Under the pieces are notes generated by a model. The model searched no databases and had not been told where the DNA came from. It was given only the letters and a program-made list of their open reading frames with translations. 64,000 bases of DNA, taken from the NCBI GenBank assembly GCA_029742005.1, contig GCA_029742005.1_4113.1; one strand, given 5' to 3'. The first letter of the stretch is position 1. Every line of letters begins with the position of its first letter. Of this stretch, positions 1,521-42,582 are shown one piece after another. The stretch is from a phage. Position numbers and translations under genes: made by a program.

Positions 1521-2162
1521 ATGACTAAGCAAGAAATATTCAAAACTTTAATTGACATTTTGCGTCCATCAAAAACTCGTTGTGCGATGGAGTTTGATAT
1601 TCCTTATGCTGAACGCGTAATCTTTCCACAAGTTAAAGCTGCTGGACTTACTTTGCTTGGAATGGGGATGTACTCTGTAGTAGTTGAACATAAAAACTAT
1701 CCTGGGCGTGCATTTAAAGTAACCACTTCACGCTGGGATGGTTTTCGTGCTTATGCAATGTACTGCATTGAAAACGCAGGAACCAAGTTTCTTCCAGTGA
1801 TCTACAGTGCAAACGAACAAGGAAACTTTGGATGGTATGAGATGGACAAGTACTATCCTATAATTAAACAAAAAAATAATTATGATGACTTTGTTAGTAC
1901 TAAAATTGGAGATTTATATTCTTATGCACATGCTGGTCAGTATGCTACTTCAGTGAATGATATGCGTGGAAATTCTGAAGAGATTGCTATTGCGACGGTC
2001 GCTGCTAACATCATGAAAGAGTTTCACGGGCGTTTTGTACCAGACATTCATTCCAGTAATGTCATGATGGATAAAGATGGCAATGTATTCATTACTGATC
2101 CTCTTTCGTGTGATGTACGTAGAGAAATACCAGTTACTGAAGAAGATCCAGTTTTTTATTGA
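1521..2162 (+). CDS. hypothetical protein, possible kinase/phosphotransferase-like fold
   Basis: RBS GAGGA before ATG; C-terminal DIHSSNVMMDKDGNVFITDP resembles a catalytic loop plus DFG-like motif. Confidence 0.45.
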   Translation: MTKQEIFKTLIDILRPSKTRCAMEFDIPYAERVIFPQVKAAGLTLLGMGMYSVVVEHKNYPGRAFKVTTSRWDGFRAYAMYCIENAGTKFLPVIYSANEQGNFGWYEMDKYYPIIKQKNNYDDFVSTKIGDLYSYAHAGQYATSVNDMRGNSEEIAIATVAANIMKEFHGRFVPDIHSSNVMMDKDGNVFITDPLSCDVRREIPVTEEDPVFY

Positions 2163-2224
2163 CAGAACTGATGTAATGAGGTATTCTTAATAAACCATTA
2201 AAAAGTGCGGTAAAGGATAAAATC

Positions 2225-2506
2225 ATGCGTTCATTTGAAAACTTAATAGGTAAGAATCTTTTATCTGAAATTGATGCAGACGTTAAAGAATTATCCAAAT
2301 CAAAAAGTTACATTCATTTGGATGAACTATTTGTTAAGTACGGTGAGATTGGTTTTAAGTCATTATTTGTTTTTACTATGAAAGTACATAGTTTAAAGTA
2401 CTTCGATTTGAGTGCTAAAGATGGTGAACCGAATCTATATTACATGTATTACCTTAAGAACAAAGATGAAGCTAATACATTACTCTCTGAATATATATTG
2501 GGGTAA
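2225..2506 (+). CDS. hypothetical protein
   Basis: RBS AAAGGATAAAATC-ATG; 93-aa ORF. Confidence 0.55.
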   Translation: MRSFENLIGKNLLSEIDADVKELSKSKSYIHLDELFVKYGEIGFKSLFVFTMKVHSLKYFDLSAKDGEPNLYYMYYLKNKDEANTLLSEYILG

Positions 2507-2508
2507 AA

Positions 2509-2847
2509 ATGGAACAATATTTTGAATTAATAAACAAAGTATCATTTTATGTAGTATCTTTGGTTTGGGTGTATTATATGTTTTGCTACATTATTGCATT
2601 CTTCCGATACACTACTTTATATGAACGTATCTACTATGATGCCCCAATTTCATTCTTGATGTTTTGTGCATGTACGTGGGGAATATTAGAAGTACTGATA
2701 TGTGGGTATAGTACTGATGAATTAAATCTGGTATCGGTGTTGACTGGGTTTTCATTTGTTGTTATGATAGCTGCCGTTCCAGTATGGTTGTTCTTTGGAC
2801 TAGTTCATCGCATTGATATATGGCGTTCTAATATCCCTGAAAAGTAA
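2509..2847 (+). CDS. small multi-pass membrane protein, family A
   Basis: Hydrophobic segments; basic C-terminus ..RSNIPEK; paralog of the 7584-10023 array. Confidence 0.55.
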   Translation: MEQYFELINKVSFYVVSLVWVYYMFCYIIAFFRYTTLYERIYYDAPISFLMFCACTWGILEVLICGYSTDELNLVSVLTGFSFVVMIAAVPVWLFFGLVHRIDIWRSNIPEK

Positions 2848-2856
2848 GGATTGGTA

Positions 2857-3198
2857 ATGATTTATTACACTAACATGTTTGCCTATGCTGTTGCTTGCAT
2901 TTACATTGTTTACTTCTTATTCGGTGGAGTACTGTGCTTCTTTAAGTACAAAACGTTGTTCAACCGAATGTACCCAAATCATCCAATTGTAGTTGTACTT
3001 TTGATTCTTTCAGTTTCTCAAATAATCGTTGAAACTACAATGGGTATCAGTAGTGTACATTATAGTTTTGGTACTATAGTAATTATTACTATGCTTATTG
3101 CATACATTTTAGTACTTGGATATGGTATCTTTGGTAATATTGGTATGAAAATGTATCATCGAATTAAAACATTACGTGATAATCTACCGGAGCGTTGA
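2857..3198 (+). CDS. small multi-pass membrane protein, family A
   Basis: RBS AAGGA; C-terminus ..LRDNLPER; table start at 2851 is TTG, ATG at 2857 used. Confidence 0.55.
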   Translation: MIYYTNMFAYAVACIYIVYFLFGGVLCFFKYKTLFNRMYPNHPIVVVLLILSVSQIIVETTMGISSVHYSFGTIVIITMLIAYILVLGYGIFGNIGMKMYHRIKTLRDNLPER

Positions 3199-3199
3199 T

Positions 3200-3544
3200 A
3201 TGTATAATTTGAACCTAATCTCATATATTATAACAACACTGTTTACATTCTATGCCTTTGTTGGTATAATCCTACTGTACTTTAAATTTTATAAAGTGTT
3301 TAACCGTTTCTATCCTTCAATGGAGAATGAGTTTTTCTTTGTGTTGTACGTATGTTACACATTCATGGCTACATGTTTCACTGTAGTCGATGGTGTCATC
3401 GGCATTAAAACTGCTGCACCAAATGGTAGTACGCTGGTTGCATTTATTCTTACCGGATTCCTTGCAACTTATATTGCCTTCATTGCAACATGGTCAGTGG
3501 TTGAATTTCTCTTGCGACTACGAAAGAATATGCCGAATCGATAG
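3200..3544 (+). CDS. small multi-pass membrane protein, family A
   Basis: RBS GGAG; C-terminus ..RKNMPNR; ATG at 3200 used instead of upstream GTG. Confidence 0.55.
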   Translation: MYNLNLISYIITTLFTFYAFVGIILLYFKFYKVFNRFYPSMENEFFFVLYVCYTFMATCFTVVDGVIGIKTAAPNGSTLVAFILTGFLATYIAFIATWSVVEFLLRLRKNMPNR

Positions 3545-3553
3545 GAGACATAT

Positions 3554-3808
3554 ATGTTTGCATTGCGTAACAAAAACACTAAAGAAATATTATGTTTAGA
3601 TACCGTATGGGATTGTGCGGGATCAACTACAGTTCTTGAAGAAGGAACTGGATATTGCGTGTTTGTTGTACATGATAGGAATGAACTCGAATTATTACTT
3701 GCTGAGTTCAATGCTGGTGGTAATCCTAACAGTACTGAATACCCTGAGATTATCAATCCAGCACCACCAGGCTCTTATGAAATTCTACAACTGTGGGAGT
3801 TGAAGTAA
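3554..3808 (+). CDS. hypothetical protein
   Basis: RBS TAGGAGA; 84 aa. Confidence 0.55.
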   Translation: MFALRNKNTKEILCLDTVWDCAGSTTVLEEGTGYCVFVVHDRNELELLLAEFNAGGNPNSTEYPEIINPAPPGSYEILQLWELK

Positions 3809-4188: not shown

Positions 4189-4189
4189 G

Positions 4190-4218
4190 TTGACAAACAC
4201 ATTCAGTACTGTATAATG
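4190..4218 (+). promoter_or_regulatory. sigma70-like promoter (TTGACA-17-TATAAT) followed by 5' stem-loop at 4227-4246
   Basis: Exact consensus hexamers with 17-nt spacer; GGGATGA/TCATCCC hairpin downstream. Confidence 0.65.
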
Positions 4219-4264
4219 CTTATCAAGGGGATGAATTTCTCATCCCTACAATCGAGGAACTACC

Positions 4265-4819
4265 ATGATTACTTTTAAGAAAACTGCTAACCACATCCAT
4301 GAAATCTACATTAACGGTCACAAAGCTGGCCTTCTTCGTTTACTCGCCCATCATCCTGATGTTACCGTATCTGATAATGAACCTAAAGATTGGCGTGTAT
4401 TTTTCTTTGGAAAGTACAGTGATTTTCAAGTATCAAACCTGAAGAACATTCGTTCAGTATGCACGTTAACTGAAATTAAAGAAAAGTTAGAAAAAGCATT
4501 GAAAACTAATCCAGATGGTGTTCTTCCACCTGATAACTTTGTAGAGAAAGGTTATGCATTAGCTCATTTCAAAGATGGTACTATTCAATCTATCAGTACT
4601 GAATATGAATATCAATGGACTGAGTACTTCACTTATGGATCGCGTAATACATTGATGGCTTCACGTAGTAAATTGGAAGAAGTACTGACTCGTATGAATG
4701 AACGCGAACGTCAATTTTATGACAAACCAGAAATGTGGAGTTCAACTTACATTGACCGTATTGACTATGTTATTATGACTCCAATCTTTGACACTGCTTA
4801 CTATGATTCTTTGAAATAA
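4265..4819 (+). CDS. hypothetical protein
   Basis: RBS GAGGAA; 184 aa; downstream of promoter + hairpin. Confidence 0.6.
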   Translation: MITFKKTANHIHEIYINGHKAGLLRLLAHHPDVTVSDNEPKDWRVFFFGKYSDFQVSNLKNIRSVCTLTEIKEKLEKALKTNPDGVLPPDNFVEKGYALAHFKDGTIQSISTEYEYQWTEYFTYGSRNTLMASRSKLEEVLTRMNERERQFYDKPEMWSSTYIDRIDYVIMTPIFDTAYYDSLK

Positions 4820-4830: not shown

Positions 4831-5007
4831 ATGAAACTACGTACTCGTAATCGACTGATGGATGCACTGTACCATGAACAGCTTTCACTGAATGAAGTGA
4901 AGCGACAGTTAATGTACACATATCTGTTACCCGCTCGCATTGCAAAACAACGTGCTAAAGAATTGCTGAAAGAAGCAATCGAGTACTGGGAATCTGATTC
5001 GTACTAA
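4831..5007 (+). CDS. small hypothetical protein (58 aa)
   Basis: RBS TAAGGA before ATG; absent from ORF track because under 60 aa. Confidence 0.45.
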   Translation: MKLRTRNRLMDALYHEQLSLNEVKRQLMYTYLLPARIAKQRAKELLKEAIEYWESDSY

Positions 5008-5035: not shown

Positions 5036-5287
5036 ATGAAAATTTTATTAGTTCTAATACTACTAATTGTTTTACCATTTACGTTAGTATCCCCTGGACT
5101 TGCATGGAATGTGTTTGTGTACTTAGTATGTACTATTGTAGTAAATGGTATCTTGTTCTTAGTTCTATTCATAAATGGAATAGGACACGGTGGAGGATGG
5201 ACCAGTACTGCTGATATTGTACATAAAACCACTATGTCTTTATTTGTAGTGTGGAATTTATTCTGGACTTGGTTTGTGTTCTTCTAA
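5036..5287 (+). CDS. small membrane protein
   Basis: RBS GTGAGG; strongly hydrophobic 83 aa. Confidence 0.55.
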   Translation: MKILLVLILLIVLPFTLVSPGLAWNVFVYLVCTIVVNGILFLVLFINGIGHGGGWTSTADIVHKTTMSLFVVWNLFWTWFVFF

Positions 5288-5299: not shown

Positions 5300-5671
5300 A
5301 TGAATATAGATTTGAAAGGTGCAACCCGAACTGTCATACTCATTGGGGAATATGCTATCAAGATTCCAACCTTTAAAAGTTGGAAGCTATTCTTAACAGG
5401 GATGATAGCTAACCTCAATGAACGTTCTTGGATGCAGTACTCCAAGCGTAGTGATAGTGGTATCTGCCCTACGTTGTGGTCATCATGTACTGGACTAGTA
5501 ACTGTACAGAAACGTTGTAAGCCAGTACAACATAGGGGTTTATTTTGGGTGGAGTTGTGTGCTTTAGCATTGAATTCAGAGTTAAGTACTGACTTCTTCT
5601 ATTCAGATGCGAAGCCAGAAAACTTTGGGTATCTGGGTGGTAAGTTAGTTAAACTTGATTATGGAGATTAA
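5300..5671 (+). CDS. small protein with kinase-like motifs
   Basis: GATRTV..YAIKIP then DAKPENFG and KLDYGD, resembling Gly-loop/Lys/catalytic loop/DFG; only 123 aa. Confidence 0.4.
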   Translation: MNIDLKGATRTVILIGEYAIKIPTFKSWKLFLTGMIANLNERSWMQYSKRSDSGICPTLWSSCTGLVTVQKRCKPVQHRGLFWVELCALALNSELSTDFFYSDAKPENFGYLGGKLVKLDYGD

Positions 5672-5672
5672 T

Positions 5673-6095
5673 ATGTACGCACTGTATAATAAAGAAAAGA
5701 AACAATTTGCTAAGGTTGAAAAATCGATTGATACATTTGGCATGTTTAAGTACTGTATTGTGACGGACCCATATGCTAACTTGTATTACGTTCTTGATGA
5801 CGTATCAGTACTGCAACGATTGCTTGAACGTTCCAAAAGCCAATGCCAAGGTATCCATGATGGTTCAACTTATGAAACACCTGAGTGTTCCTATGGCTAT
5901 CTGGATGGGTATGAGATTGTGAAGTTGGGTGCATTGTTGATTAATGAGGAATTTATGAAACTATGTACATGTGATGATTGTGGTAAACAAATACCAGAAA
6001 GTGAAGTATATCGTAATGAAACTGCATTCGGTGATGATGGTGACTACTGCCAGGATTGTTTTTACGAGAACCATTATGATTTTGGCGATGATTAA
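5673..6095 (+). CDS. hypothetical protein with C-terminal Cys-rich (zinc-ribbon-like) region
   Basis: RBS GGAG; C-terminal CTCDDCGK..(21)..CQDC. Confidence 0.5.
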   Translation: MYALYNKEKKQFAKVEKSIDTFGMFKYCIVTDPYANLYYVLDDVSVLQRLLERSKSQCQGIHDGSTYETPECSYGYLDGYEIVKLGALLINEEFMKLCTCDDCGKQIPESEVYRNETAFGDDGDYCQDCFYENHYDFGDD

Positions 6096-6099
6096 AACA

Positions 6100-6127
6100 A
6101 AGGGTTGACTTCGGTCAGCCCTTTTTG
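6100..6127 (+). terminator. rho-independent terminator overlapping a promoter -35
   Basis: AGGGTTGACTTCGGTCAGCCCT hairpin + TTTTTG. Confidence 0.65.
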
Positions 6128-6134
6128 TTATAAT
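6105..6134 (+). promoter_or_regulatory. promoter TTGACT-18-TATAAT embedded in terminator
   Basis: -35 lies in hairpin stem; -10 TATAAT at 6129-6134. Confidence 0.5.
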
Positions 6135-6162
6135 CATTTCATCGAAACGAGAGGATGAATAC

Positions 6163-6678
6163 ATGACACGCATTAACTTAGTACACGTTAAAGAACTTGC
6201 TGACCAACATCTGATGGCTGAATATCGTGAACTCCCACGTGTATTTGGTGCTGTACAAAAACACGTTCAAGCACGTAAGCGTGTACGTGATTTCAAAATT
6301 AACAGTACTTACCTGTTAGGTTCAGGTCATGTAACATTCTTCTACAACAAGTTATTGTACTTACAGAAGCGTCATATTGATATTGTTAACGAATGTTTGC
6401 GTCGTGGTATGAAGATTCAAAACACTGAAGTAAACGACATTAGCGGATTCCCTGCTGAGTTTTGTAATGACTACGTACCATCGGAGTCAGAGATTAAAAT
6501 GTCTCGTGAGCGTTTGATTGAGAAGCTACAGATGAAGCCTACGTGGTATAAATTTACTGACGTTGAACGCCCACAGTATGTTAAAGATATGCAGGACGTA
6601 AGTAGTAATATAGAATCTAGTACTGATTTGTTCGACGAAATTGAAGAACAAATCAAAGATGAAATGAATAATTATTAA
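6163..6678 (+). CDS. denV: pyrimidine-dimer DNA glycosylase / endonuclease V
   Basis: N-terminal 130 aa closely match the T4 DenV sequence as recalled ([46 protein letters not shown]); acidic C-terminal extension. Confidence 0.88.
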
Positions 6679-11203: not shown

Positions 11204-12373
11204 CTAAGCAGAAGGCATATCCTTCATCTTAATAAATGAAAATTGTGTACCAGTATTTGTGGTTTGATCAGTAAAATATGAATTACTACCAGCCCAGTAC
11301 AATTCATTATTAACTATACAATATATAACAGAACTCGAACTCTGTGAATACACACGACTTATATTTGATGGTTCTACTCCAGTACTGAACTGAACCGAAC
11401 CCAACTGTGAACTTGGTATCACATCAGTTGGTCTACCTAAACCATTAACACCAGCCCCACCACCACATGTATATACCCCAGTACTATCAGTTGATATATT
11501 AACATAACCATTCCCGGCATTTTCAAATAGTATTTCACTGGGAGCAACACCAAATCCTGTAAGATCTATTTTCCTGAATGTAGTGTAAACAGTAGAACCA
11601 CCAACACCTCTTCCACCATAATCATTAGAACCAGCCATATAGATACTATATCCAGAACTTCCTAAACATAATAACTGTACGTTGTCATATAATATTTGCA
11701 TAGATATAACGTTATCAGGAATACTCAATACCGTAAAAGTAGTTAAAGAAGAACTTCCAATATTACTACCAACCGATGTTCCACATCTGTAGTACTTACC
11801 GCCTTTTATATAATGGAACGATGAACCCCCTAACTTATGTGCTCCTATTGCACTTACCTCAGTATCTATGAGAATGGGAGATACAACTTTGTTATTAACA
11901 CCTAACTCAGATCTACTGTTCATACCGAACCCATATAAACGACCATCTAACATCAATATTAGTGTACTACCGGAAGTACCCGCTGACGTAAATTCTATAT
12001 TCTTTATTTGCGACACGTCAATACCTACAAATAATGAAGTTACTTCAGTCCAGTTAACATATGAACCACTAGCCCCAAAATATCCACCCATGTATAGACC
12101 TGCACAATATAATTTATTATCAACAGTCTTTATTAATGTACCGGATACACACGCCCAAAAATCATCAACTTCATAGGGTACATGTACCCAACCACCTAAT
12201 ACATCACTAGCATCCCCTGTACCTAATTTATAGTTCGAACCAGAACCACGCATGTACATATTCCCTGTACTATAAAGTAATCCGACATGTAATTGACTAC
12301 CATCCAATTTCTTTATTTCGGGAAGAGTTGGTTTAATATTTCCGTACTTTAACATTCTTCCAAAAGGTAACAT
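11204..12373 (-). CDS. RCC1-like repeat (beta-propeller) protein, MLPF family
   Basis: Start MLPFGRMLKYGN after AAAGGAGGAA; G-x-N-x-x-G-x-LG-like repeats. Confidence 0.6.
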   Translation of the reverse strand: MLPFGRMLKYGNIKPTLPEIKKLDGSQLHVGLLYSTGNMYMRGSGSNYKLGTGDASDVLGGWVHVPYEVDDFWACVSGTLIKTVDNKLYCAGLYMGGYFGASGSYVNWTEVTSLFVGIDVSQIKNIEFTSAGTSGSTLILMLDGRLYGFGMNSRSELGVNNKVVSPILIDTEVSAIGAHKLGGSSFHYIKGGKYYRCGTSVGSNIGSSSLTTFTVLSIPDNVISMQILYDNVQLLCLGSSGYSIYMAGSNDYGGRGVGGSTVYTTFRKIDLTGFGVAPSEILFENAGNGYVNISTDSTGVYTCGGGAGVNGLGRPTDVIPSSQLGSVQFSTGVEPSNISRVYSQSSSSVIYCIVNNELYWAGSNSYFTDQTTNTGTQFSFIKMKDMPSA

Positions 12374-12399
12374 AATTCCTCCTTTATTCATTATACTAT

Positions 12400-12437
12400 A
12401 TTTAATACAAAAAGAAAAGCCAGTACAGAGTACTGGC
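12400..12437 (-). terminator. terminator hairpin GCCAGTAC-N3-GTACTGGC with T-run on minus strand
   Basis: Perfect 8-bp stem; minus-strand transcript reads hairpin then TTTTCTTTTT. Confidence 0.55.
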
Positions 12438-12444
12438 CTATATT

Positions 12445-13164
12445 TTAGACTGAATTGTTAGGATAATATCTCCCACGTCCCCATATTATTCGCACAGCAC
12501 CACCACCAGCAGCCGTATAAGAAAAATTATCCCATATACTACCACCACCACCATACATCTTACCAGCACCACCACTACCAGCACCACCATTATATGAACC
12601 ATCGTATCTACCGCCAATACCATTAGCACCTTGAACAATGATACCAGTACCACCACCCGTACCAATGAACGAGGTATTATAGAATGCACCACCACCGCCG
12701 CCGCCGCCAGCACCATTTTCACCAGTGATTGCATCTCCGTTACCACCTTTACCAGTGTAGCCACCAGCACCACCACCAATGACTGCACCACCACTTACAC
12801 CAGCGTTGCCCCCATTACCACCACCATCATTAATAGCGTTAGCAGCTTTCCCACCTAGTCCACCAACCCTATATTCACCAGTGAAGCTAACACATAGTTT
12901 TTCAGTTCCACGATATAAACCGTTTTCAACTGGTGTAGTAGTGTTGGGATGTGTAAGAGAAACACTTAAGTACTCACCACTAGTAACCGGAATATTATTA
13001 CGCCACGATAAGCCGCCACCAGCACCACGTTGACCACCCGGCGAAATAACACATACTGATATTTCGGTAACGCCAGCAGGAACTGTAAATTGTGTTGTTC
13101 CTATTGTCGTGATTAATTGTTCACCATGTGGCTTATATTCAATTTTATTCCCTCCTTTATTCAT
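12445..13164 (-). CDS. glycine-rich repeat protein (possible fibre-like structural protein)
   Basis: 239 aa, long GGxGG runs in C-terminal two thirds; same upstream module as RCC1 genes. Confidence 0.55.
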   Translation of the reverse strand: MNKGGNKIEYKPHGEQLITTIGTTQFTVPAGVTEISVCVISPGGQRGAGGGLSWRNNIPVTSGEYLSVSLTHPNTTTPVENGLYRGTEKLCVSFTGEYRVGGLGGKAANAINDGGGNGGNAGVSGGAVIGGGAGGYTGKGGNGDAITGENGAGGGGGGGAFYNTSFIGTGGGTGIIVQGANGIGGRYDGSYNGGAGSGGAGKMYGGGGSIWDNFSYTAAGGGAVRIIWGRGRYYPNNSV

Positions 13165-13180
13165 TATAATATATTTAATA

Positions 13181-13211
13181 CAAAAAAGAAAAGCCAGTAC
13201 TCTGTACTGGC
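13181..13211 (-). terminator. terminator hairpin GCCAGTAC-N3-GTACTGGC with T-run
   Basis: Same hairpin as 12419-12437. Confidence 0.55.
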
Positions 13212-13218
13212 TTTTACA

Positions 13219-14409
13219 TTACAATTGTCTAGGTGTATCCAGTACATATCTATTTGTACGAGGACCACCATCATCATGCGTTCCGGTTGAATATATATTT
13301 TTCATATCAGCAGTTAGGAAAGTACGATACGAACCGCGATATATTTTAATTTTATCATACATAGAATATGTTATTCCTGACGGCAATGGACATGCAGTAA
13401 ATTTACCAATGGTAACATTAGAACCAACACCTAATGTACCAGCATAACCACTCGCATTTAAACCAGTTGCATATACACCTGTACTCGTAACTAGTATACT
13501 AGATTGTGATGCATATCCAGTATGGATTGAATAATAAGTTCCTGATGGTAATGTAGTACTATTATTCCCTAATACTGCTAGTGCTGTACTATTCGTAGTG
13601 TTATTACCCCATGCCCCATTATTAGCTAATCCACCAACTAGAAACTGACGTGCTCCTGTATTTGGATTCTCCACTAAAGCACTGACAGCACCAAATGAAC
13701 AAACAGTATATTGTAATGTTTTTGTATATGTGGTACTTGGCTTATACAAAGTATATTCATTAAATGGTGTCCATGTGGTACTAGTACTTATGCCAGATGT
13801 ACTACCACCAATATATAAATTATTTTGTGTATCAAAAAACATTGCACAGTAATTTGTTGACTGTATTTGTGCAATATCTACATCTGGTGTTACCGCTTTA
13901 ACAAATGAACCATCTGATATTTGATAAGTAGTTCCTGTACCATCTGCGAATTGTCTAGCACTATTCCACCCTGTACTCCATATTGTATTATTATCCATTA
14001 AGAAAGTAAACCATGTAGTACCTGCATACATCTGTTTAATTGAAGTACTTGAACTTTGTTTGTACAATTTTTCAATATATTGGTTATAACTTAAAAATGA
14101 TGTAGTACTAGTTTCTAAACCAATATGACTACCATATCCACAATAAAAATAATTTAAGTCCTTATCTTGAACTAACAAAGTTCCTTGTGTCATCCAGCAA
14201 TCTTTGACATTTTCTCTAATTAATGTCCACGACCTTACTGCATTATTATTTCCTCTACCAAACTTCCCAAAACTATTACTGCCTCGTGCGTATAGTTGAC
14301 CGTCGGTATAAAGTACAACAACCTCAGTATCAGTTGGTATTATTTTCTTAATTTGAAGAGGTTCAGGTGTGATATTCCCATAATCAAACATTCTAACAAA
14401 AGGTAACAT
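13219..14409 (-). CDS. RCC1-like repeat protein, MLPF family
   Basis: MLPFVRMFDYGN; RBS AAGGAGGAAAT; repeats such as YARGSNSFGKFGRGNN. Confidence 0.6.
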   Translation of the reverse strand: MLPFVRMFDYGNITPEPLQIKKIIPTDTEVVVLYTDGQLYARGSNSFGKFGRGNNNAVRSWTLIRENVKDCWMTQGTLLVQDKDLNYFYCGYGSHIGLETSTTSFLSYNQYIEKLYKQSSSTSIKQMYAGTTWFTFLMDNNTIWSTGWNSARQFADGTGTTYQISDGSFVKAVTPDVDIAQIQSTNYCAMFFDTQNNLYIGGSTSGISTSTTWTPFNEYTLYKPSTTYTKTLQYTVCSFGAVSALVENPNTGARQFLVGGLANNGAWGNNTTNSTALAVLGNNSTTLPSGTYYSIHTGYASQSSILVTSTGVYATGLNASGYAGTLGVGSNVTIGKFTACPLPSGITYSMYDKIKIYRGSYRTFLTADMKNIYSTGTHDDGGPRTNRYVLDTPRQL

Positions 14410-14478
14410 ATTTCCTCCTTATTCATTATACTATATTTAATACAAATAAGAATGCCAGTATCAAGTACTGGCATTATG

Positions 14479-15588
14479 TTATTTTGGTAAATCAATTTTA
14501 GTAAAGACTGCAACATCCTCGATTGCACCTGGAATGGCGTAATACGATCCAGTACTATACACATCTCCATTTTTGGTTAATATCGATGTCAAACCATCAC
14601 TAAAAAGAACATCCCTAATCTCACTAACTTCAACGGGTAATTGTAAATTGGTAGCACTATATATAGCACCAGTTTGAGAATTGTTTAATCCCAAACCACG
14701 GTTCGCCCCAACACCCTTCTGATATGTACTAGTAATTACCATTTGTGTAGCAGTATTTAAGGCAGGTGAATTCGTCATAAACAACGGAGAACTATTAGGC
14801 AAAGTACTTACAGGAACGGCACGGAATGTAGTCGTGCCTGAACTAAGAAAGTTTGGAGTTTGACCACATACGAAATATGATGTACCATTATAGTAATTGA
14901 ATGCATTACCACCAATGGCTGCATCGATTACACCAGAACTACGCAATCCCCAAGTGTTAATTTGTGTTTGGTTCCCCGTACCATGCTGTCCACTACTATT
15001 CCATCCAGAACTATATAGCTTATTATCTAATGTAAGATACATACTATCATTCGCATTGGTCATTACTTTACGAACGTTCGTAGCACATTGAGTTAATGTG
15101 TAAATTGATGAGGAACCAATACCCAAAGAACCACGATATCCATTATCTCCTGCACCATAGAGTACTGAATTAGTGCTAAGTACAAATATTAAACCATTTG
15201 TACATACAATATTAGCAATTTCACTTACTGGTATAGCATTGGTAAACCAATTAGTCCTTTCAACTAATACAGTACTGTAAGAAGTAGTTGTAGAAGATGA
15301 GAACCAGTACGTTTGACCTGATGTCCATATCGTATTATCATTTTTAATAATAACAAGTGTACGATCACCCACGAAAAAATTAGAAACATCTGCACTTACT
15401 AATATCCATGAAGATACCGTGTTGGTATTACCATTTCCAGATTCACCACCTTGATTTCTACCTATGTAATATAAATCATGTGAATCAGTCAATAAGAATT
15501 GACCTTGTGTAGAAGCACCAACTTTAATTATATTTTTAGGACCAGGTACAATATTTCCGTACTTAACCATTCTTGCAAAAGGTAACAT
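14479..15588 (-). CDS. RCC1-like repeat protein, MLPF family
   Basis: MLPFARMVKYGN start; 369 aa. Confidence 0.6.
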   Translation of the reverse strand: MLPFARMVKYGNIVPGPKNIIKVGASTQGQFLLTDSHDLYYIGRNQGGESGNGNTNTVSSWILVSADVSNFFVGDRTLVIIKNDNTIWTSGQTYWFSSSTTTSYSTVLVERTNWFTNAIPVSEIANIVCTNGLIFVLSTNSVLYGAGDNGYRGSLGIGSSSIYTLTQCATNVRKVMTNANDSMYLTLDNKLYSSGWNSSGQHGTGNQTQINTWGLRSSGVIDAAIGGNAFNYYNGTSYFVCGQTPNFLSSGTTTFRAVPVSTLPNSSPLFMTNSPALNTATQMVITSTYQKGVGANRGLGLNNSQTGAIYSATNLQLPVEVSEIRDVLFSDGLTSILTKNGDVYSTGSYYAIPGAIEDVAVFTKIDLPK

Positions 15589-15598
15589 AATTCTCTCC

Positions 15599-16729
15599 TT
15601 AATTTAATAATGCCCCTGGCAAATCCACTTTGACGAATTGTGCATATGCTGAGGAATTTTGATCAAAGTTTGGTCCCAATCCATAAAATGAGCTAATGCC
15701 GTCTTCATTTGTGTATATGATATAAACGTTCTTTACATCATTTCCGCATATAAATCGAATGTCTTTCGTTTGTGTTCCCGCTGGAACATTACGAAGGTTC
15801 ACAACGCCATTACTTGCATTGTTATCAGCCGACGCAATTGGTAATTGATTTTGACCATATTGACCACGCATATTTTTTGCATCTAAACCAAACACAGTAT
15901 TTGATACCGCACCAACTTTCAAAAATGAACCAAAACTATTATTGAATGACTTTGGAAATGTACCACTATAAACACTTCTCCCATCTGATAATACCGCTGA
16001 ACTGAATTTCCCGTTATTCGATATGGCAAATTCATTGTAAGGAAGTGTACCCATTTTGGTATATACAGAATATGAATTAGTGGAAGTATTATCAATAATC
16101 TTATTACCATTATATCCAATACCATACTGGTATCCGTCTGCATCTTGAACTATACACAAAGGACCACTTGGGGTTTGTGTCAACGAAACAACACGTTCAA
16201 CTTGTATATCACCAAATGTATTTCTTCGCCATGTTCTATCTATTATAGTACTAGTATTACCCAAAGATAATTCCACACTATATAATAGATTGTTTTCAGT
16301 AAAAATGGCAACATAATATGCGTGGTTAATAACTTGCTTCATCCCAGCATCAATAACTTCCTGTGGAATATGATCAGTAACATCCAACCAATCAAGGTTA
16401 GATGATGCAATATCTGGAGTACTGAATTTGTCAAATCTAGTTGAGCCACAAACTAGCACTCTATCATCATTTGTCAAAGCCACTGTGCTAGTCTGCATAT
16501 TAGAACTGAATGATTTAACATTACTAATGTTAGACTTGTACCAACCCTTATCAGCAGCACCCACCGTGAATCCGGTTCCCATTGATCCACTTGTACTTGT
16601 ACCATAAGCCCACATCTCACCACTATATGTTAGTGCCATACAGTGGCTTCCATTTGCTTGGAAATCCTTTATACCAGTGGGAGCAACCACTGTATTCCCA
16701 TAATCAAACATTCTAACAAAAGGTAACAT
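15599..16729 (-). CDS. RCC1-like repeat protein, MLPF family
   Basis: MLPFVRMFDYGN after GGAGAT; track start MEILV is the SD region. Confidence 0.6.
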   Translation of the reverse strand: MLPFVRMFDYGNTVVAPTGIKDFQANGSHCMALTYSGEMWAYGTSTSGSMGTGFTVGAADKGWYKSNISNVKSFSSNMQTSTVALTNDDRVLVCGSTRFDKFSTPDIASSNLDWLDVTDHIPQEVIDAGMKQVINHAYYVAIFTENNLLYSVELSLGNTSTIIDRTWRRNTFGDIQVERVVSLTQTPSGPLCIVQDADGYQYGIGYNGNKIIDNTSTNSYSVYTKMGTLPYNEFAISNNGKFSSAVLSDGRSVYSGTFPKSFNNSFGSFLKVGAVSNTVFGLDAKNMRGQYGQNQLPIASADNNASNGVVNLRNVPAGTQTKDIRFICGNDVKNVYIIYTNEDGISSFYGLGPNFDQNSSAYAQFVKVDLPGALLN

Positions 16730-16804
16730 AACTAAAATCTCCATATAATAATTATAATGTATTTACAAAAAAATACCAGTACATATTTCAGTACTGGCAT
16801 TTTG

Positions 16805-17932
16805 TTAAAATGGTAAATCTATTTGTTTAGTAAATGTCATACTTAGTGGTATTGAACACATTGACGCATTTCTCCCATTTAAATTGGACGGAGGCTGTCC
16901 GTTCATCCATATATTGGTATCGTCGTAAAAAGTACTCCACCACGTAGAACCTTCCGTATGAAGATTAATATTAAAATCAGGGAATTGACATTCTTGAAAA
17001 ACATCAAAAAACGGGATAGATGATACACTACTACCAGTAAATGGAGTGTAGCCTGTTGACATTAATTTATTAGTATCCGAATTTACCAAAAAGATAACAG
17101 AACCAGTATTGAATGGTGAATATTTTGGATACAAATTACTCATATCACCGATAGTGAAGTTGATATCAAATATTTTACTATGCTTACCAGTTCCTGAAAG
17201 TGTAGTACCAGTTACATATATTTTATTATCAGTTGTTCCCATGACAAACCCAATTCCAAATCCCACACAAAATGTTATGTCATATGGTATATTATCAAAG
17301 AGTGGGACAAACGTTGTGGCATCACCAGTAGTAGCTTTTATTTGATAGCTATTATTTGCCCCAGCACCCCAAACAGTACCATTTGATTTCACTTTGAATA
17401 TACTATCTCCTATGTAGTGACCGTATATACTATCAACTTCAGTATCAAGTTTTGTCCATTGTGATACAAAGTTTTTATGCCCTAAACCTAAACAACCATT
17501 GCGGTTTAGTCCCCTGCCGTATAGTGTACCATCATTCATCAGTACAAATGTTGTGTATCCACAAAGCATTTTTTTGATTTGTGTAACATCAATACCAGCA
17601 AAAAAACCACTCCAATCAGTATATCCTTGTTGGATTGCGTTTGATTTGGTGAATGACATAGTTGGTCCTGAACCATATATTTTACCATCTTTTATAATCA
17701 CTGAATAAGAACCTAACCATACATCTTGAACATTCTCACTAATTGTTTTCAATTCACCATATGCAGAGAATGGAGTACTTTGCCCTGCACTATATGATGA
17801 ATCTTCACCGTGTGCATATAATGTTCCATTTTCTGTTAGAATCATTTCCAAATATACACAATTGACAATTTTCTTTATTTTATTAACTTCTATTTTATTT
17901 CCGTACGCTAACATCCTTGCAAAAGGTAACAT
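16805..17932 (-). CDS. RCC1-like repeat protein, MLPF family
   Basis: MLPFARMLAYGN; YGRGLNRNGCLGLGH repeat. Confidence 0.6.
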   Translation of the reverse strand: MLPFARMLAYGNKIEVNKIKKIVNCVYLEMILTENGTLYAHGEDSSYSAGQSTPFSAYGELKTISENVQDVWLGSYSVIIKDGKIYGSGPTMSFTKSNAIQQGYTDWSGFFAGIDVTQIKKMLCGYTTFVLMNDGTLYGRGLNRNGCLGLGHKNFVSQWTKLDTEVDSIYGHYIGDSIFKVKSNGTVWGAGANNSYQIKATTGDATTFVPLFDNIPYDITFCVGFGIGFVMGTTDNKIYVTGTTLSGTGKHSKIFDINFTIGDMSNLYPKYSPFNTGSVIFLVNSDTNKLMSTGYTPFTGSSVSSIPFFDVFQECQFPDFNINLHTEGSTWWSTFYDDTNIWMNGQPPSNLNGRNASMCSIPLSMTFTKQIDLPF

Positions 17933-18007
17933 AACTAAAATCTCCATATAATAATTATAATGTATTTACAAAAAAATACCAGCACATATTTCAGTACTGG
18001 TATAATG

Positions 18008-19180
18008 TTATGGTAAAATAATAGCTTGTAACGAACTCATACCCAATGTTGGAACACTCGCCTGTGGTGCTGGTGCATTCACTTTTGGTGATGAAACCGC
18101 ATAAGTCATTCCTGTACCCAAATCTGGATCAAAAACTACAGAACAATAATCCCCATTGTATATAAGTCCATTAGTATATCCTTGTACACTTTGAATGCAT
18201 TTCGTGAACGTACCAATGTCAGTAGTGGCATTTATTAAGTTCCTCCCACGGTAGCCACATGTGTATATGAAATTATCATCACCTATGTACATACTCGCAT
18301 TCCCAGAAGAACTACATAGATAAGACATATAAGCACGCATGTTTTTAGGAGCAACTGACAATGTACCAGCATAGAATTTATTATTCATACCCGAAATATC
18401 ACCATCACCCAAAGCACCAAAACTCCCCCAACCAGTACCATAATATCTCTTATCACTCAAGAATATAATACAGTTGTTATTACACATCTTGACTTGATAT
18501 ATCAATGAAGGATCAACCCCAGGGAATGATTCAGTGTATGTTAGAACAGCCAGATCAGTACTGGCATTACATTGATGATATGTATTAGTACCAGCGGACA
18601 ATATTGTACCATCAACTAATAGAATCCTCGAAGTGCCAGTACCAGCAATACAAGCAACAGCATTACCTGTATATATTTTTCTGAAAGTAAAGAAACCAAC
18701 AGTCTTACTCCCCTGTCCACTCCAACCAGTATTATCAACACCACATGCCCATACTGAACCATCTTGCATGATCATCATTACACCATAGCGTTCTATCGAA
18801 ATATAGACAATCTTCGTAGTATCAACTGCACTAAATCTAGAAGTTATATCAGTCCAAACCTTTACACTCACCGCCGTCGCACCGAAAGTAGGATCTTCCC
18901 CTGCTATCATTATCCTACCATTGTTAGTCAGATACATTGTCTGACTATAACCAGTACTACAAAACTTAACACTATCAGTCTCTGGAACTTTTAACCACTC
19001 GTTGTAACGTGTTACGTTAGTGTTATTATCTAACTGATAATAGTTATTCATCCCAGATACATATAACACACCATCCTTTATTAAACTATAAGTCGCACTA
19101 TAGTCACTACAGGTATAACGTGTACCCACAGGTCGCTCAACGACGTTCCCATATTCTAACATCCTTACAAAAGGCAACAT
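18008..19180 (-). CDS. RCC1-like repeat protein, MLPF family
   Basis: MLPFVRMLEYGN; no clear SD; start uncertain. Confidence 0.5.
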   Translation of the reverse strand: MLPFVRMLEYGNVVERPVGTRYTCSDYSATYSLIKDGVLYVSGMNNYYQLDNNTNVTRYNEWLKVPETDSVKFCSTGYSQTMYLTNNGRIMIAGEDPTFGATAVSVKVWTDITSRFSAVDTTKIVYISIERYGVMMIMQDGSVWACGVDNTGWSGQGSKTVGFFTFRKIYTGNAVACIAGTGTSRILLVDGTILSAGTNTYHQCNASTDLAVLTYTESFPGVDPSLIYQVKMCNNNCIIFLSDKRYYGTGWGSFGALGDGDISGMNNKFYAGTLSVAPKNMRAYMSYLCSSSGNASMYIGDDNFIYTCGYRGRNLINATTDIGTFTKCIQSVQGYTNGLIYNGDYCSVVFDPDLGTGMTYAVSSPKVNAPAPQASVPTLGMSSLQAIILP

Positions 19181-19221
19181 AACTAAATACCAGAACATAT
19201 TTCAGTACTGGTATCGTAGCG

Positions 19222-20364: not shown

Positions 20365-20436
20365 ATTTCCCTCCTTTATTCATTATACTATATTTAATCA
20401 AAAATAAAAGCCAGTACTTGAGTACTGGCATAGTAT

Positions 20437-21564: not shown

Positions 21565-21636
21565 AATTCCCTCCTTTATTCATTATACTTTATTTAATAC
21601 AAATAAGAATTCCTGTATCGAGTACTGGCATTCAAT

Positions 21637-22785: not shown

Positions 22786-22827
22786 ATTTCCTCCTTTATT
22801 CATTATATCATATTTACCCCATAACCC

Positions 22828-22856
22828 TTGACATCCTTTCAGTACTGGTGTACTAT
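22828..22856 (+). promoter_or_regulatory. promoter TTGACA-17-TACTAT heading the 22.9-26.9 kb array
   Basis: Consensus -35, 17-nt spacer containing CAGTACTG. Confidence 0.5.
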
Positions 22857-22881
22857 AGAAGGAATATAAGGAGAACTACAC

Positions 22882-39278: not shown

Positions 39279-39292
39279 AAAGAATTGAAAAA

Positions 39293-39325: not shown

Positions 39326-39416
39326 ATATTCATTGAAACAATCTAGCCCACAGGGTGCATAAATGTATCTATTGTTTGCTGGTGGCTAGTACTATCAAGT
39401 ACTGAAAACTATTTTT

Positions 39417-39802: not shown

Positions 39803-39891
39803 TAAAATAGTTTGACAATAGTTTTTAGTACTGTATAATAGTTTACATCAAGTGGGGAATAGTTCCCCACCTAACAAAGAGAGAAATTAAA

Positions 39892-40167: not shown

Positions 40168-40254
40168 GTATTGACAAAGTATCTTAGTACTGTATAATAG
40201 TTTACATCAAGTGAGGGGAATGGTTCCCCTCCTAACAAAAAGAGAGAAATTAAA

Positions 40255-40578
40255 ATGGCTATGATCCTTACCCAGAAAGTAGAAATGAAAATTGTAACTT
40301 CCTTTGACATTAAAGTTAATCGGTGGACTGATAGCCACGGCAATACTTACCACTCATGCTACGTGTCTGCATTGATTGGTGACCGCTGGGAAGACCTGGG
40401 ACATGAAACCTTTACTTACGGTTACGGTACACAAGGCGAATACACGGGCTTGGAGATCATTAAAGAAACTGTAATAGGTTTCAACCCGAAAGAGAAAGTA
40501 CTACACAGAATTGAGGATGAGATCAACAAAGAAATTACAGTTCGTTACTACGATGTAAAACGTAAGAAAGACATGTAA
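40255..40578 (+). CDS. hypothetical protein, paralog of 34367-34711
   Basis: Promoter + hairpin upstream; C-terminus VKRKKDM. Confidence 0.55.
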   Translation: MAMILTQKVEMKIVTSFDIKVNRWTDSHGNTYHSCYVSALIGDRWEDLGHETFTYGYGTQGEYTGLEIIKETVIGFNPKEKVLHRIEDEINKEITVRYYDVKRKKDM

Positions 40579-40592
40579 TAGAATCCATTTAA

Positions 40593-40629
40593 AGTACTAT
40601 TTGACATTACCCAGATAGTACTTTATAAT
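40593..40629 (+). promoter_or_regulatory. promoter TTGACA-17-TATAAT bracketed by IR AGTACTAT/ATAGTACT
   Basis: -35 40601-40606; -10 40624-40629. Confidence 0.6.
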
Positions 40630-40677
40630 AGACTCTAACTTGTAGTACTAATTAACTTAACTAATAGGATGTACACC

Positions 40678-41073
40678 ATGATTACTAAATTCTTCGCTAC
40701 CCGTGAACAAGCTCGCATCGTTGCCCGTGAAGAAGGTGAAACATTTAAAGACATGGGCAAAGATGCACCGAAAGGACAACGCTGGGCGGTACAGTTCAAA
40801 GAGATCTCTGATATTGTGAATTCACCTGAACCAGTACTTACTGAAGCAGAACTAAAGCAAGCTCAAGAACTGGCTGAAGTACTGAACGCTCAAGATGACT
40901 TCTTGGAAGGTTCTGATATTCAAGTACAAGTGAATAGTAATGCATGGACTCACGCGGATCACCTGGCAAACCTTAAGCGTCCAAGTGAACTGATTCGTAA
41001 CCAGAAAGAGATCCGTCATGACCGTAAAGGAAACCGTGTAACAGTATACAGTAAACGCCGCCAGGTTATCTAA
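40678..41073 (+). CDS. hypothetical protein, KFFATREQAR family
   Basis: Paralog of 29681-29947. Confidence 0.55.
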   Translation: MITKFFATREQARIVAREEGETFKDMGKDAPKGQRWAVQFKEISDIVNSPEPVLTEAELKQAQELAEVLNAQDDFLEGSDIQVQVNSNAWTHADHLANLKRPSELIRNQKEIRHDRKGNRVTVYSKRRQVI

Positions 41074-41095
41074 TAACTTGCAGTACTAACAACAC

Positions 41096-41120
41096 GGCGG
41101 GTTCAGTTCCCGCCTTTTTT
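41096..41120 (+). terminator. rho-independent terminator
   Basis: GGCGGG-TTCAGTT-CCCGCC + TTTTTT. Confidence 0.7.
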
Positions 41121-41135
41121 ATAGGATAAACTAAA

Positions 41136-41390
41136 ATGATGAAGGTACAACTATCTAAAGATAATATCTTGCGGGTACACTATAAAGCACCACAGAGAAT
41201 CATCACAAAGGCCGTACAGCTTGCTAATGAGTTTATTAATGGTAGTCTATTACCCAGGAAGTTAAGCAACGGAAAACTACGTGTTATCGATGTAGACACT
41301 AACAATAGAATAGTAATTGAGAGTACTGGAAAAATTAATCTATATGAACACCAACAATACAATAAAAAAATAAAACTAATATCACGTTGA
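41136..41390 (+). CDS. hypothetical protein
   Basis: RBS TAGGATAAA. Confidence 0.5.
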   Translation: MMKVQLSKDNILRVHYKAPQRIITKAVQLANEFINGSLLPRKLSNGKLRVIDVDTNNRIVIESTGKINLYEHQQYNKKIKLISR

Positions 41391-41446
41391 CAGTACTCAA
41401 TTGTTTTAGTATTATGTATCTATACCAACACAGAGAGAGAAACAAA

Positions 41447-41665
41447 ATGAAATTATCTAAAATCGAAAAGAAAACTATTGATGAAGCAGTGAAGCACGGT
41501 TATACCTTTCGTAATGATTCACATTTTACCAATTTTCAACAAGGGTATCGTACTATTAAAAAACTAATTGACAAAGGTTTATTAGTTGAAGTCAATAACG
41601 GCAATGGCATTGAGTATCAACCAACACAAGACGCATTATCACTAAAGAAATATTCTATTATCTAA
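41447..41665 (+). CDS. hypothetical protein
   Basis: Promoter TTGACAGTACTCAATTGTTTTAG-TATTAT upstream. Confidence 0.5.
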   Translation: MKLSKIEKKTIDEAVKHGYTFRNDSHFTNFQQGYRTIKKLIDKGLLVEVNNGNGIEYQPTQDALSLKKYSII

Positions 41666-41722
41666 TTGACAGTACTCAAATGTTTTAGTACTATGTACGC
41701 ATACCAACACGGGGAAAACAAA

Positions 41723-41950
41723 ATGATTACTTTAGAAAAACGTATCAAAGAGACTACAACGCTGGTGGAACTGTTAACCGTTCTTAAATGCCGGGTAACT
41801 CCATTCAGTACACCGGACTTTATCAACATGGTGGACGTTAACGGTCGATATCGTATTGCGGTCGAACAAGGTACGGCAAAAGTATTCAGTACTAAAAATA
41901 CGCGTGAAGTATTCCACGCAGTTCAAGTAAAAAAAAGTAGTTGCCATTGA
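41723..41950 (+). CDS. hypothetical protein
   Basis: Near-identical duplicated promoter upstream. Confidence 0.5.
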   Translation: MITLEKRIKETTTLVELLTVLKCRVTPFSTPDFINMVDVNGRYRIAVEQGTAKVFSTKNTREVFHAVQVKKSSCH

Positions 41951-41997
41951 TAGTAAAGTACTGTAATATAGTTTCATTAACTCAAGGAGTCAACACA

Positions 41998-42582
41998 ATG
42001 CGTAACTATACTAAATTCATCCGTTCACTTCATGCAATGGAAACCAACAAAGAGATCCTTTCAGCTTGTCGGTTAGCTGGACTGGAGATCGTCGGTGCGG
42101 GTTCTTCCCGTATTGTATTCGCTTTAAATGATCGGTTAGTGATTAAGGTCGCGAATTGTGATGCGGGTGTAGAACAAAATGAAACTGAATGTAAGGTATG
42201 GAATTTTTTAGATTATGACCGTCCGCACCTTAAACAGTTCTTTGCCAAGGTGCATATGCATTTATGCGATCCTGATAATCTGTTTATTGTTATGGATCGT
42301 TTGAGTACTGCAAGCAAAGGCAGTGTAAAGCATGTAAACGCGTGCAATGAGTTAAAGTACAATATTAAACGTAATACGGTAGAACGCCAACACCATTTCG
42401 CTGATGCTCTCAATCACGTTGATGATACATTATCCACACTAACGATAAGAGATATCAGAAAACAGAATATCGGCCAGGATCGCAACGGCTTGATTAAAGT
42501 ACTTGATTACGGTTTAACCCGCAATATCTGGAATCAGTACTATAAAAAACGTGATGTTAACGCGATAACTATAACACGATAA
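41998..42582 (+). CDS. protein kinase-like protein
   Basis: GAGSSRIVF (Gly loop), VIKVA (Lys), IRDIRKQN (catalytic loop), KVLDYG (DFG-like); RBS AAGGAG. Confidence 0.5.
   Translation: MRNYTKFIRSLHAMETNKEILSACRLAGLEIVGAGSSRIVFALNDRLVIKVANCDAGVEQNETECKVWNFLDYDRPHLKQFFAKVHMHLCDPDNLFIVMDRLSTASKGSVKHVNACNELKYNIKRNTVERQHHFADALNHVDDTLSTLTIRDIRKQNIGQDRNGLIKVLDYGLTRNIWNQYYKKRDVNAITITR

Follow-up and report, generated by a model that had tools for sequence, protein, structure and literature searches.

Three kinase-like proteins from two families, ending shortly after the DFG-equivalent motif, in an Asteriusvirus jumbo coliphage

The phage kinases T7K (gp0.7 of phage T7) and JSS1_004 have recently been shown to be broad anti-defence weapons. 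T7 gp0.7 carries a C-terminal shut-off (SO)/DNA-binding domain, and T7K has been reported to be biased towards nucleic-acid-binding substrates; a jumbophage clade of T7K, including Escherichia phage G17 and Salmonella phage Munch, has lost the SO domain and retains the DP motif (PMC13645617). In this work, a stretch of phage DNA of 64,000 nucleotides (nt), hereafter the window (NCBI GenBank assembly GCA_029742005.1, contig GCA_029742005.1_4113.1), was analysed with respect to three open reading frames (ORFs) of its + strand, ORF A (positions 1521–2162), ORF B (5300–5671), and ORF C (41998–42582), which an earlier sequence-only reading had proposed to encode divergent kinase-like proteins. The window belongs to an Asteriusvirus (121Q/G17/Sharanji-like) jumbo coliphage, with 96–98% DNA identity to JP4, BAU.Micro_ELP-22, phAPEC6, 121Q, G17, and Sharanji. 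The kinase-like identity of all three ORFs was supported, and they probably encode three C-terminally minimal protein-kinase-like (PKL) enzymes from two families, which would phosphorylate host proteins early and with low specificity.

All peptides quoted in the sequence-only reading were found on the + strand in real ORFs at the positions where it had placed them. Its literal consensus, D-x-[KH]-x-x-N followed by D-[YP]-G, holds for ORF B (DAKPEN...DYG) and fails for ORF A (DIHSSN...DPL) and ORF C (DIRKQN...DYG). A loosened pattern, D-x-[KHR]-x-x-N, 8–16 residues, and D-[YFP]-[GLV], matched ORFs A, B, and C only among the 291 six-frame ORFs of at least 60 amino acids (aa), and residue-shuffled ORFs gave a mean of 0.09 matches versus the three observed. 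Profile and structure searches revealed kinase-fold relationships for each of them, with T7 gp0.7 for ORF A, with MKK4/6/7 for the profile of ORF C, and with kinases for the model of ORF B, and scanning with five profiles found no further kinase-like paralogue in the window. Searches of Pfam, NCBIfam, and PADLOC returned nothing above threshold for any of the three, with weak generic kinase matches for ORF C only, including PD-T4-6 kinase models.

The three proteins have a common architecture. All retain the ATP-binding N-lobe, with its G-loop, beta3 Lys, and alphaC Glu. Of the C-lobe, they have only the catalytic core: alphaE, the Asp/Asn pair of the catalytic loop, beta7-beta8, and the Asp of DYG or DPL that binds metal. 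None of the three has an activation segment/P+1 loop or helices alphaF–alphaI, and each chain ends no more than 22 residues past the DFG-equivalent motif.

ORF A and the T7 gp0.7 family

The 213-aa product of ORF A is a kinase domain of the T7 gp0.7 (T7K) family. It matches PHROG 15752 ('protein kinase; inhibitor of host transcription...') with an E-value of 1.9e-97, and an alignment of 19 of its homologues was matched to residues 61–225 of T7 gp0.7 with an hhalign probability of 98.5% (E 2.2e-15). The conserved elements are G47-x-G49 of the G-loop (nt 1659–1667), F-K66 (K66 at 1716–1718), D175-x-H177-x-x-N180 (2043–2060), and I-T-D193-P194-L-S196 (D193 to S196 at 2097–2108), and the key residues so numbered are invariant in the 19 homologues, including the D and P of the DP motif that stands in place of DFG.

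T7K and ORF A have in common a G-x-G-x-[FY]-S G-loop, the beta3 Lys, D-[MI]-H-S-[GS]-N, and I-T-D-P with the next Ser; DMHSGN and ITDPVS of T7 gp0.7 correspond to DIHSSN and ITDPLS of ORF A, and S196 is the counterpart of the T7K autophosphorylation site S216. The kinase fold of ORF A, like that of T7K, stops soon after the DFG-equivalent. The two proteins differ in that DPV of T7 is DPL in ORF A, a position at which the Val has been reported not to be conserved in jumbophage homologues (PMC13645617), and in that ORF A ends 20 residues past D193 and therefore lacks the SO domain. Without this DNA-binding domain, the T7K-like bias towards nucleic-acid-binding substrates may be missing as well. 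Because of the homology to T7K, ORF A would by default be expected to phosphorylate host proteins promiscuously on Ser/Thr/Tyr and thereby to act in anti-defence.

ORF A is thus not a new finding, since the jumbophage clade has been published and annotated. Its gene is labelled as protein kinase in the GenBank records of 121Q, JP4, and other relatives, the Sharanji orthologue has been called a T7 kinase homologue (PMC11895373), and the precomputed Pfam accession on ORF A homologues is PF27024. A sequence-profile search of the PDB with the ORF A family alone gave no significant match, and no sequence relationship between the T7K family and the B/C family was detected by hhalign.

ORFs B and C as members of one family

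The sequence-only reading had counted three distinct kinase copies; three kinase-like genes are indeed present, but they represent two families only, as ORFs B and C are, on the evidence of profile comparisons, distant paralogues within one uncharacterised phage PKL family. Pairwise BLASTP among A, B, and C detected nothing significant, and profiles were therefore needed to reveal this relationship. The B and C family alignments matched each other in hhalign (E 2.7e-5), and a profile of 75 diverse B-family members matched ORF C over its whole length (E 6e-7). Both proteins match PHROG 4301 (E 9.2e-44 for B and 2.8e-42 for C), which carries no functional annotation and is here assigned to the PKL fold and divided into two forms, a core one of ~120 aa and another of ~195 aa. 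Residues invariant in the merged B+C alignment (in ORF C numbering, G35, R38, V40, K50, G57, N61, E64, D152, N157, G159, L169, D170, and G172) include, in kinase terms, the G-loop, the beta3 Lys, the alphaC Glu, the catalytic-loop Asp/Asn, and the metal-binding Asp of D-Y-G. ORF C exceeds ORF B at three places: by a helical extension at the N-terminus (residues 1–28), by ~30 aa inserted behind the hinge, and by a tail of 22 aa following D-Y-G.

The merged B+C profile aligned to residues 68–186 of PKA and matched MELK with an E-value of 0.003, and ORF B therefore corresponds to Hanks subdomains I–VII. The order and spacing of the motifs fit kinase geometry, mapping onto PKA residues ~43–186. 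Subdomains I–VII (G-loop, A-x-K, alphaC Glu, and D-Y-G) are ordered and spaced in ORFs B and C as they are in Hanks Ser/Thr kinases (PF00069/PF07714), and the catalytic residues of these subdomains (G-loop, beta3 Lys, alphaC Glu, Asp/Asn, and DFG Asp) are found in both, with D-x-K-P-E-N present in ORF B. However, subdomains VIII–XI (activation segment/APE, alphaF Asp, alphaG–alphaI, and subdomain XI Arg) are missing, ORF B ending 3 residues past D120 and ORF C 24 residues past D170 (22 past the DYG motif); the G-loop contains a single Gly, with an invariant Arg replacing the third Gly; and no His-Arg precedes the catalytic Asp. The solved chains of OspG/NleH, HopBF1, Bud32/PRPK, RIO, and archaeal ArkI comprise 169–270 residues with C-lobe helices after DFG, whereas ORF B has no such helices, and a PDB profile search revealed no sequence-level relationship of B to these proteins. 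The likeness of B and C to APH enzymes is one of fold only, since the H-x-D Brenner motif is absent (Y-S-D in B and I-R-D in C) and nothing after DYG in either protein could form the C-terminal helical substrate-binding subdomain.

ORF B encodes a mini protein-kinase-like protein of 123 aa that ends one residue past D-Y-G. Its key residues are G7/R10 (nt 5318–5329), K21 (5360–5362), E41 (5420–5422), D103-A-K105-P-E-N108 (5606–5623), and D120-Y-G (5657–5665), so that the set of four canonical elements in order, ascribed by the sequence-only reading to ORF C, is not peculiar to the latter: every canonical catalytic element is likewise present in ORF B. The same reading considered the 123-aa copy too short for a full kinase domain; this is literally true, but the short length is a conserved trait of a large family and involves no truncation. 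Homologues of ORF B down to 45% identity are all 118–127 aa long. An exhaustive profile search of 1.84 billion cluster representatives (clusters at 50% identity) retrieved 1,774 clusters at E<=1e-3 and 665 at E<=1e-10; 137 of the 150 best cluster representatives do not exceed 160 aa, and most members are 110–135 aa long, with a median of 121 aa in the 75-member alignment (A5). In this alignment, G7, R10, K21, E41, and D120 are invariant (75/75), position 103, the catalytic base, is occupied by D in 58 members, E in 16, and K in one, K105 is present in 63/75, and position 108 is N in 61/75 and S in 14/75. As many as 65 of the 75 members stop 2–3 residues past D120. The conserved length and endpoint across the family therefore indicate that ORF B is neither a fragment nor a truncation.

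Structure prediction, one of the checks suggested for these ORFs in advance, yielded a confident kinase-like model for ORF B and, for ORF C, a model that is confident for the N-lobe only. The AlphaFold2 model of ORF B, with a predicted local distance difference test (pLDDT) of 90.7 and a predicted template-modelling score (pTM) of 0.80, displays the kinase order beta1-3, alphaC, beta4-5, alphaE, catalytic loop, and beta7-8. It superposes over 100–116 of 123 residues on JAK, TTK, BRAF, PknB, APH, RIO, and Bud32 and thus shows PKL-fold similarity across the N-lobe and catalytic core; OspG and HopBF1 are both among its structural matches. The neighbours of ORF B in BFVD are mostly uncharacterised phage proteins, including the RaK2 orthologue of ORF C, two CBB proteins, and an RP12 'protein kinase domain-containing protein', followed at weaker scores by Ser/Thr kinases of giant viruses.

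ORF C encodes a longer paralogue of B, of 194 aa, with key residues G35/R38 (nt 42100–42111), K50 (42145–42147), E64 (42187–42189), D152...N157 (42451–42468), and D170-Y-G (42505–42513). Its family profile matched MKK4 in the PDB with an E-value of 2.6e-4 (MKK4/6/7 up to 2e-3) across alphaE, the catalytic loop, and DFG, and ~250 more kinase chains at E<1. The block-mean pLDDT of its AlphaFold2 model is 68–93 up to residue 100. Foldseek related this model to APH(2'') and PRPK/Bud32 at E ~2e-4, with low TM (0.35 for APH(2'')) and with the C-terminal half at pLDDT <50; for that half, support comes from sequence profiles, namely of the family against MKK4/6/7 and of the broad B profile against C.

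Among cultured phages, C-type proteins occur only in Rak2-like jumbo phages (of Escherichia, Klebsiella, Salmonella, Erwinia, Xanthomonas, and Yersinia). That ORF C is a putative kinase has been noted before, by several GenBank records and one paper: C-type proteins are labelled 'protein kinase' in the records of K64-1, Munch, Muenster, and Turkey3/5, and the Sharanji orthologue has been described as 'another protein kinase (WNN14351.1), function unknown' (PMC11895373). Large metagenomic proteins, P0061 (923 aa), P0111 (782 aa), P0135 (638 aa), and P0162 (969 aa), are built from 3–4 C-type mini-kinase modules in tandem, with a separate N-terminal helical segment for every module; several of the modules have Glu or Asp in place of the catalytic-loop Asn. 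A minority of B-family members carry unrelated C-terminal extensions, which contain no kinase C-lobe and have no Pfam match; such extensions and the tandem C-type modules suggest an autonomous module.

Neither the link between B and C nor the very large family of ~120-aa half-kinases turned up in Pfam, in PHROG or GenBank annotation (one GenBank record excepted), or in the searchable literature, which yielded no description of a ~120-aa mini-kinase phage family. No model in the local Pfam copy covers the B family, and precomputed annotations show no Pfam domain on any B or C homologue. B homologues are present in 118 phage records, and among the 40 inspected nearly all are 'hypothetical'; in one Erwinia phage record, the homologue is named 'STE family protein kinase catalytic domain containing protein'.

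Transcription signals, neighbours and distribution

The starts of the three ORFs agree with coding sequences annotated in relatives. ORF A starts at ATG 1521 and ORF C at ATG 41998, preceded by the Shine-Dalgarno sequences GAGGA and AGGAG, respectively, and ORF B starts at ATG 5300. Alternative starts at ATG 1488 for A and TTG 41941 for C were rejected, since they overlap promoter-like boxes (-10 and -35, respectively) and have no ribosome-binding site; the -35-like box at 41941 thus explains the spurious TTG start of ORF C.

Promoter-like sites were defined by matches to the sigma-70 consensus only, their function being presumed. Directly upstream of ORF A, a sigma-70-like site at 1463–1492 (+ strand; TTGACT, 18-nt spacer, TATGAT, with TG; 10/12) is located in and just after a hairpin. 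The nearest strong (>=10/12) site upstream of ORF B is a consensus match at 4190–4217 (+ strand; TTGACA, 16-nt spacer, TATAAT; 12/12), which would give a transcription unit consisting of ORFs 4265–4819, 4831–5007, 5036–5287, B, and 5655–6095. This presumed unit is closed by a terminator-like hairpin, AAAGGGTTGACTTCGGTCAGCCCTTT, at 6099–6124 (+ strand), which contains the -35 box of the next promoter-like site (6105–6134). ORF C is preceded by a weak sigma-70-like site at 41941–41969 (+ strand; TTGCCA, 17-nt spacer, TAATAT; 9/12), and just past its end lies a terminator-like hairpin, AAAGGGATTGACTCCAGTCAGTCCCTTT, at 42594–42621 (+ strand), containing the -35 box of the next promoter-like site (42601–42629).

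A repeated composite element was recognised at 1455–1492, 6099–6134, and 42594–42629, consisting of a terminator-like hairpin of the form AAAGGG(A)TTGACT-loop-AGTCAG(C/T)CC(C)TTT with a TTGACT -35 box inside, after which a TATGAT, TATAAT, or TATTAT -10 box stands at the correct distance; it could thus serve both as the end of one transcription unit and as the start of the next. In the region 40601–43407 (+ strand), strong sigma-70-like sites (10–12/12) stand before almost every small gene, at 40601, 41387, 41666, 42601, 42724, and 43379. What look like 'TTG starts' in the ORFs at 41387, 41666, and 41941 are in fact -35 boxes, which explains the apparent 57% N-terminal identity of ORFs 41387–41665 and 41666–41950.

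In phage vB_Ec-M-J, the orthologue of ORF C lies inside the annotated 21.5-kb direct terminal repeat; it would therefore be diploid in virion DNA and presumably among the first DNA entering the cell. The flanking promoter-like sites and the terminal-repeat location of C fit early transcription by the host RNA polymerase.

No conserved neighbour gene family was found beside B genes, either by clustering across 31 IMG/VR loci or in the other loci inspected separately, and such widely different neighbourhoods argue against a split kinase with a conserved partner. The only recurrent neighbour, found in two unrelated lineages, is a denV-like pyrimidine-dimer DNA glycosylase (Pfam Pyr_excise). In the window, it is encoded at 6163–6678, downstream of ORF B with one ORF between, and in ~12 PaMx11-like siphophage loci (L031–L034, L036, L058–L063, and L065; some duplicated between collections) its gene follows the B gene after 0–220 nt, the proteins of the window and of the PaMx11-like lineage being 38% identical. 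It is not beside the B gene in PaMx11 itself or in the other lineages checked. In Escherichia phage JS10 (L043, 2477–3854), the B homologue is directly upstream of rnlB (RNA ligase 2), which may be either a coincidence or a hint at nucleic-acid repair; the denV and RNA ligase 2 adjacencies are hints and form no pattern.

The intervening ORF 5655–6095 overlaps the end of B and encodes 146 aa from TTG or 143 aa from ATG 5664, with a zinc-ribbon-like C-terminal CDDC...CQDC motif and no Pfam match; in JP4, it is replaced by a different shorter gene and an HNH endonuclease. In a 64-kb phage contig (L006, 2159–2524), a Tad2-like gene (anti-Thoeris sponge family) is located ~1.5 kb upstream of a B homologue, which suggests an anti-defence or accessory region. 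The B homologue of Shewanella phage SXP01 (H43, a 270-kb phage; 16071–16448) is labelled 'putative virion structural protein'; if this label has a proteomic basis, packaging and injection of some mini-kinases would be possible.

The B family is carried by Asteriusvirus, by T4-like Dhakavirus and related phages (JS10, IME341, and PaulHMueller), by large phages of Aeromonas, Erwinia, Klebsiella, Ralstonia, and Rhizobium, and by siphophages of Pseudomonas and Xanthomonas (PaMx11-like). A 123-aa homologue is also encoded by a lambdoid Salmonella prophage (L066/L067, Salmonella enterica contigs, 6001–6372) in a moron slot between the lysis cassette (holin, lysozyme, and Rz) and terminase Nu1, so temperate phages carry the family too. 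No B relative was found in species-representative genomes of bacteria and archaea, although the pattern used, DxKPEN[FY]GY, is narrow and constitutes weak evidence for absence.

Other genes of the window include three tandem paralogues encoding small hydrophobic proteins of 112–122 aa between A and B (2509–2847, 2851–3198, and 3176–3544; BLASTP E 7e-9 and 4e-5), which are probably membrane proteins. On the - strand, a tandem array of nine paralogous genes of ~375–415 aa each, with pairwise identities of 21–64%, extends over 11207–22875 (11207–12457, 13222–14418, 14482–15603, 15602–16762, 16808–17965, 18011–19201, 19225–20379, 20440–21579, and 21640–22875).

Possible function and competing explanations

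According to the reading favoured here, the host sigma-70 RNA polymerase would transcribe the genes of A, B, and C early, and the proteins would bind Mg-ATP in their cleft and pass phosphate to accessible Ser/Thr/(Tyr) residues of host, and possibly phage, proteins; the timing, the activity of B and C, and the substrates are what we infer. Sequence specificity would be low, as measured for T7K, since there is no peptide-binding lobe, and the outcome would be a contribution to host take-over and the disabling of defence proteins, in line with the host-takeover function that the sequence-only reading had envisaged. The catalytic residues of B and C are kept by strong purifying selection throughout a huge family, which argues for catalysis. 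Having no peptide-binding lobe, the two proteins would be expected to show little sequence specificity, to depend on a host partner, or to act on a non-protein substrate.

A number of observations weigh against this reading. The function and promiscuity of the jumbophage T7K clade, to which ORF A belongs, remain to be elucidated (PMC13645617). The Pfam search recommended at the outset gave only sub-threshold kinase matches for ORF C (PK_Tyr_Ser-Thr, E 1e-3, and Pkinase, E 3e-3, with 18.8 and 17.4 bits against gathering cut-offs of 23.1 and 31.7, respectively) and none for ORF B or any of the 75 B-family members (0/75 for PF00069 / PF07714), and the B family alone found no significant match in a PDB sequence-profile search. 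The model of ORF C is poor past residue 105, with pLDDT <50 for residues 106–194. Small-molecule kinases (APH) and SAICAR synthetase are among the structural neighbours of ORF B, and the substrate class can therefore not be read from the fold alone. ORF B has no recognisable Shine-Dalgarno sequence, and the overall count of promoter-like sites is not above that in shuffled sequence. The alphaF helix and the regulatory/catalytic spines count as structural essentials of canonical kinases; ORF B lacks them, which makes autonomous catalysis uncertain. That the B family (~120 aa, subdomains I–VII, ending at DYG) is an autonomous, catalytically active phosphotransferase is accordingly a tentative proposal, one that we consider somewhat doubtful.

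Among the alternatives, B and C could, by analogy with APH or the archaeal RNA kinase ArkI, be phosphotransferases for non-protein substrates, such as nucleic-acid ends, nucleotides, or small signalling/antibiotic-like molecules. The best Foldseek matches of ORF C, all of them APH(2''), would agree with this, as would the missing peptide-binding C-lobe and the B genes adjoining a denV-like glycosylase in two unrelated lineages and RNA ligase 2 in JS10. However, D-x-K-P-E-N-F-G, A-I-K, and D-Y-G are motifs typical of Ser/Thr protein kinases, the significant sequence-profile matches are all to eukaryotic-type protein kinases (MKK4/6/7, MELK, PKA, and TTK), the helical substrate-binding subdomain of APH is likewise absent, and the neighbour associations concern only 2–3 of ~12 lineages, most contexts being unrelated; we consider this alternative unlikely. 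An equally unlikely explanation is that B, and possibly C, are non-catalytic ATP/nucleotide binders, acting as a pseudokinase-like binder, a sponge, or an allosteric inhibitor of a host protein. ORF B lacks the activation segment and alphaF–alphaI, which scaffold the active conformation of canonical kinases, and its strictly invariant residues G7, R10, K21, E41, and D120 are the positions of nucleotide and metal binding, whereas the catalytic base varies (D 58, E 16, and K 1) and K105 is kept in only 63/75; moreover, nucleotide sequestration by small phage proteins is a known anti-defence strategy, and one B homologue has a Tad2-like gene 1.5 kb away. On the other hand, D/E at the catalytic base in 74/75 members and N/S at the metal ligand in 75/75 exceed the needs of binding alone, and the minimal kinases OspG and HopBF1 are active.

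The remaining two explanations carry far less weight. ORF B might be what decay or truncation has left of a full kinase, or it might form a split kinase together with a neighbour that provides the C-lobe, given that its 123 aa amount to about half a canonical kinase domain, that it ends at DYG, and that no Shine-Dalgarno sequence precedes it. This very improbable view is essentially refuted by the conserved length (118–127 aa down to 45% identity, 137/150 best representatives <=160 aa, and most members stopping 2–3 residues after the Asp of DYG), by the compact and confident model (pLDDT 90.7, pTM 0.80), and by the lack of a neighbour family conserved across the 31 IMG/VR loci or other contexts, while the C-terminal extensions of longer members are unrelated and provide no kinase C-lobe or Pfam match. 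Chance matches to kinase motifs in unrelated small phage proteins deserve practically no credence: short motifs can arise randomly, and BLASTP comparison of A, B, and C with one another gives nothing significant, but the shuffle test (0.09 expected versus 3 observed) together with the profile, PHROG, and structural evidence refutes this explanation.

Besides one T7K-type kinase, this phage genus carries two proteins of another kinase-like family, which is uncharacterised. In that family, the ~120-residue form is of note because the residues associated with ATP, metal, and catalysis are kept, and the half of the fold that serves stability, regulation, and substrate choice is discarded. B homologues occur in the laboratory phages Sharanji, JS10, and PaulHMueller. 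If inactive, the B family would be a widespread nucleotide-binding module. If active, it would comprise the smallest protein-kinase-like enzyme known, the alphaF–alphaI scaffold and the activation segment would be dispensable for phosphotransfer, and the minimal kinase would be redefined; the family would then represent a new, tractable, and very widespread class of phage effectors, possibly with an anti-defence role, present in jumbo phages, T4-like phages, siphophages, and lambdoid prophages.

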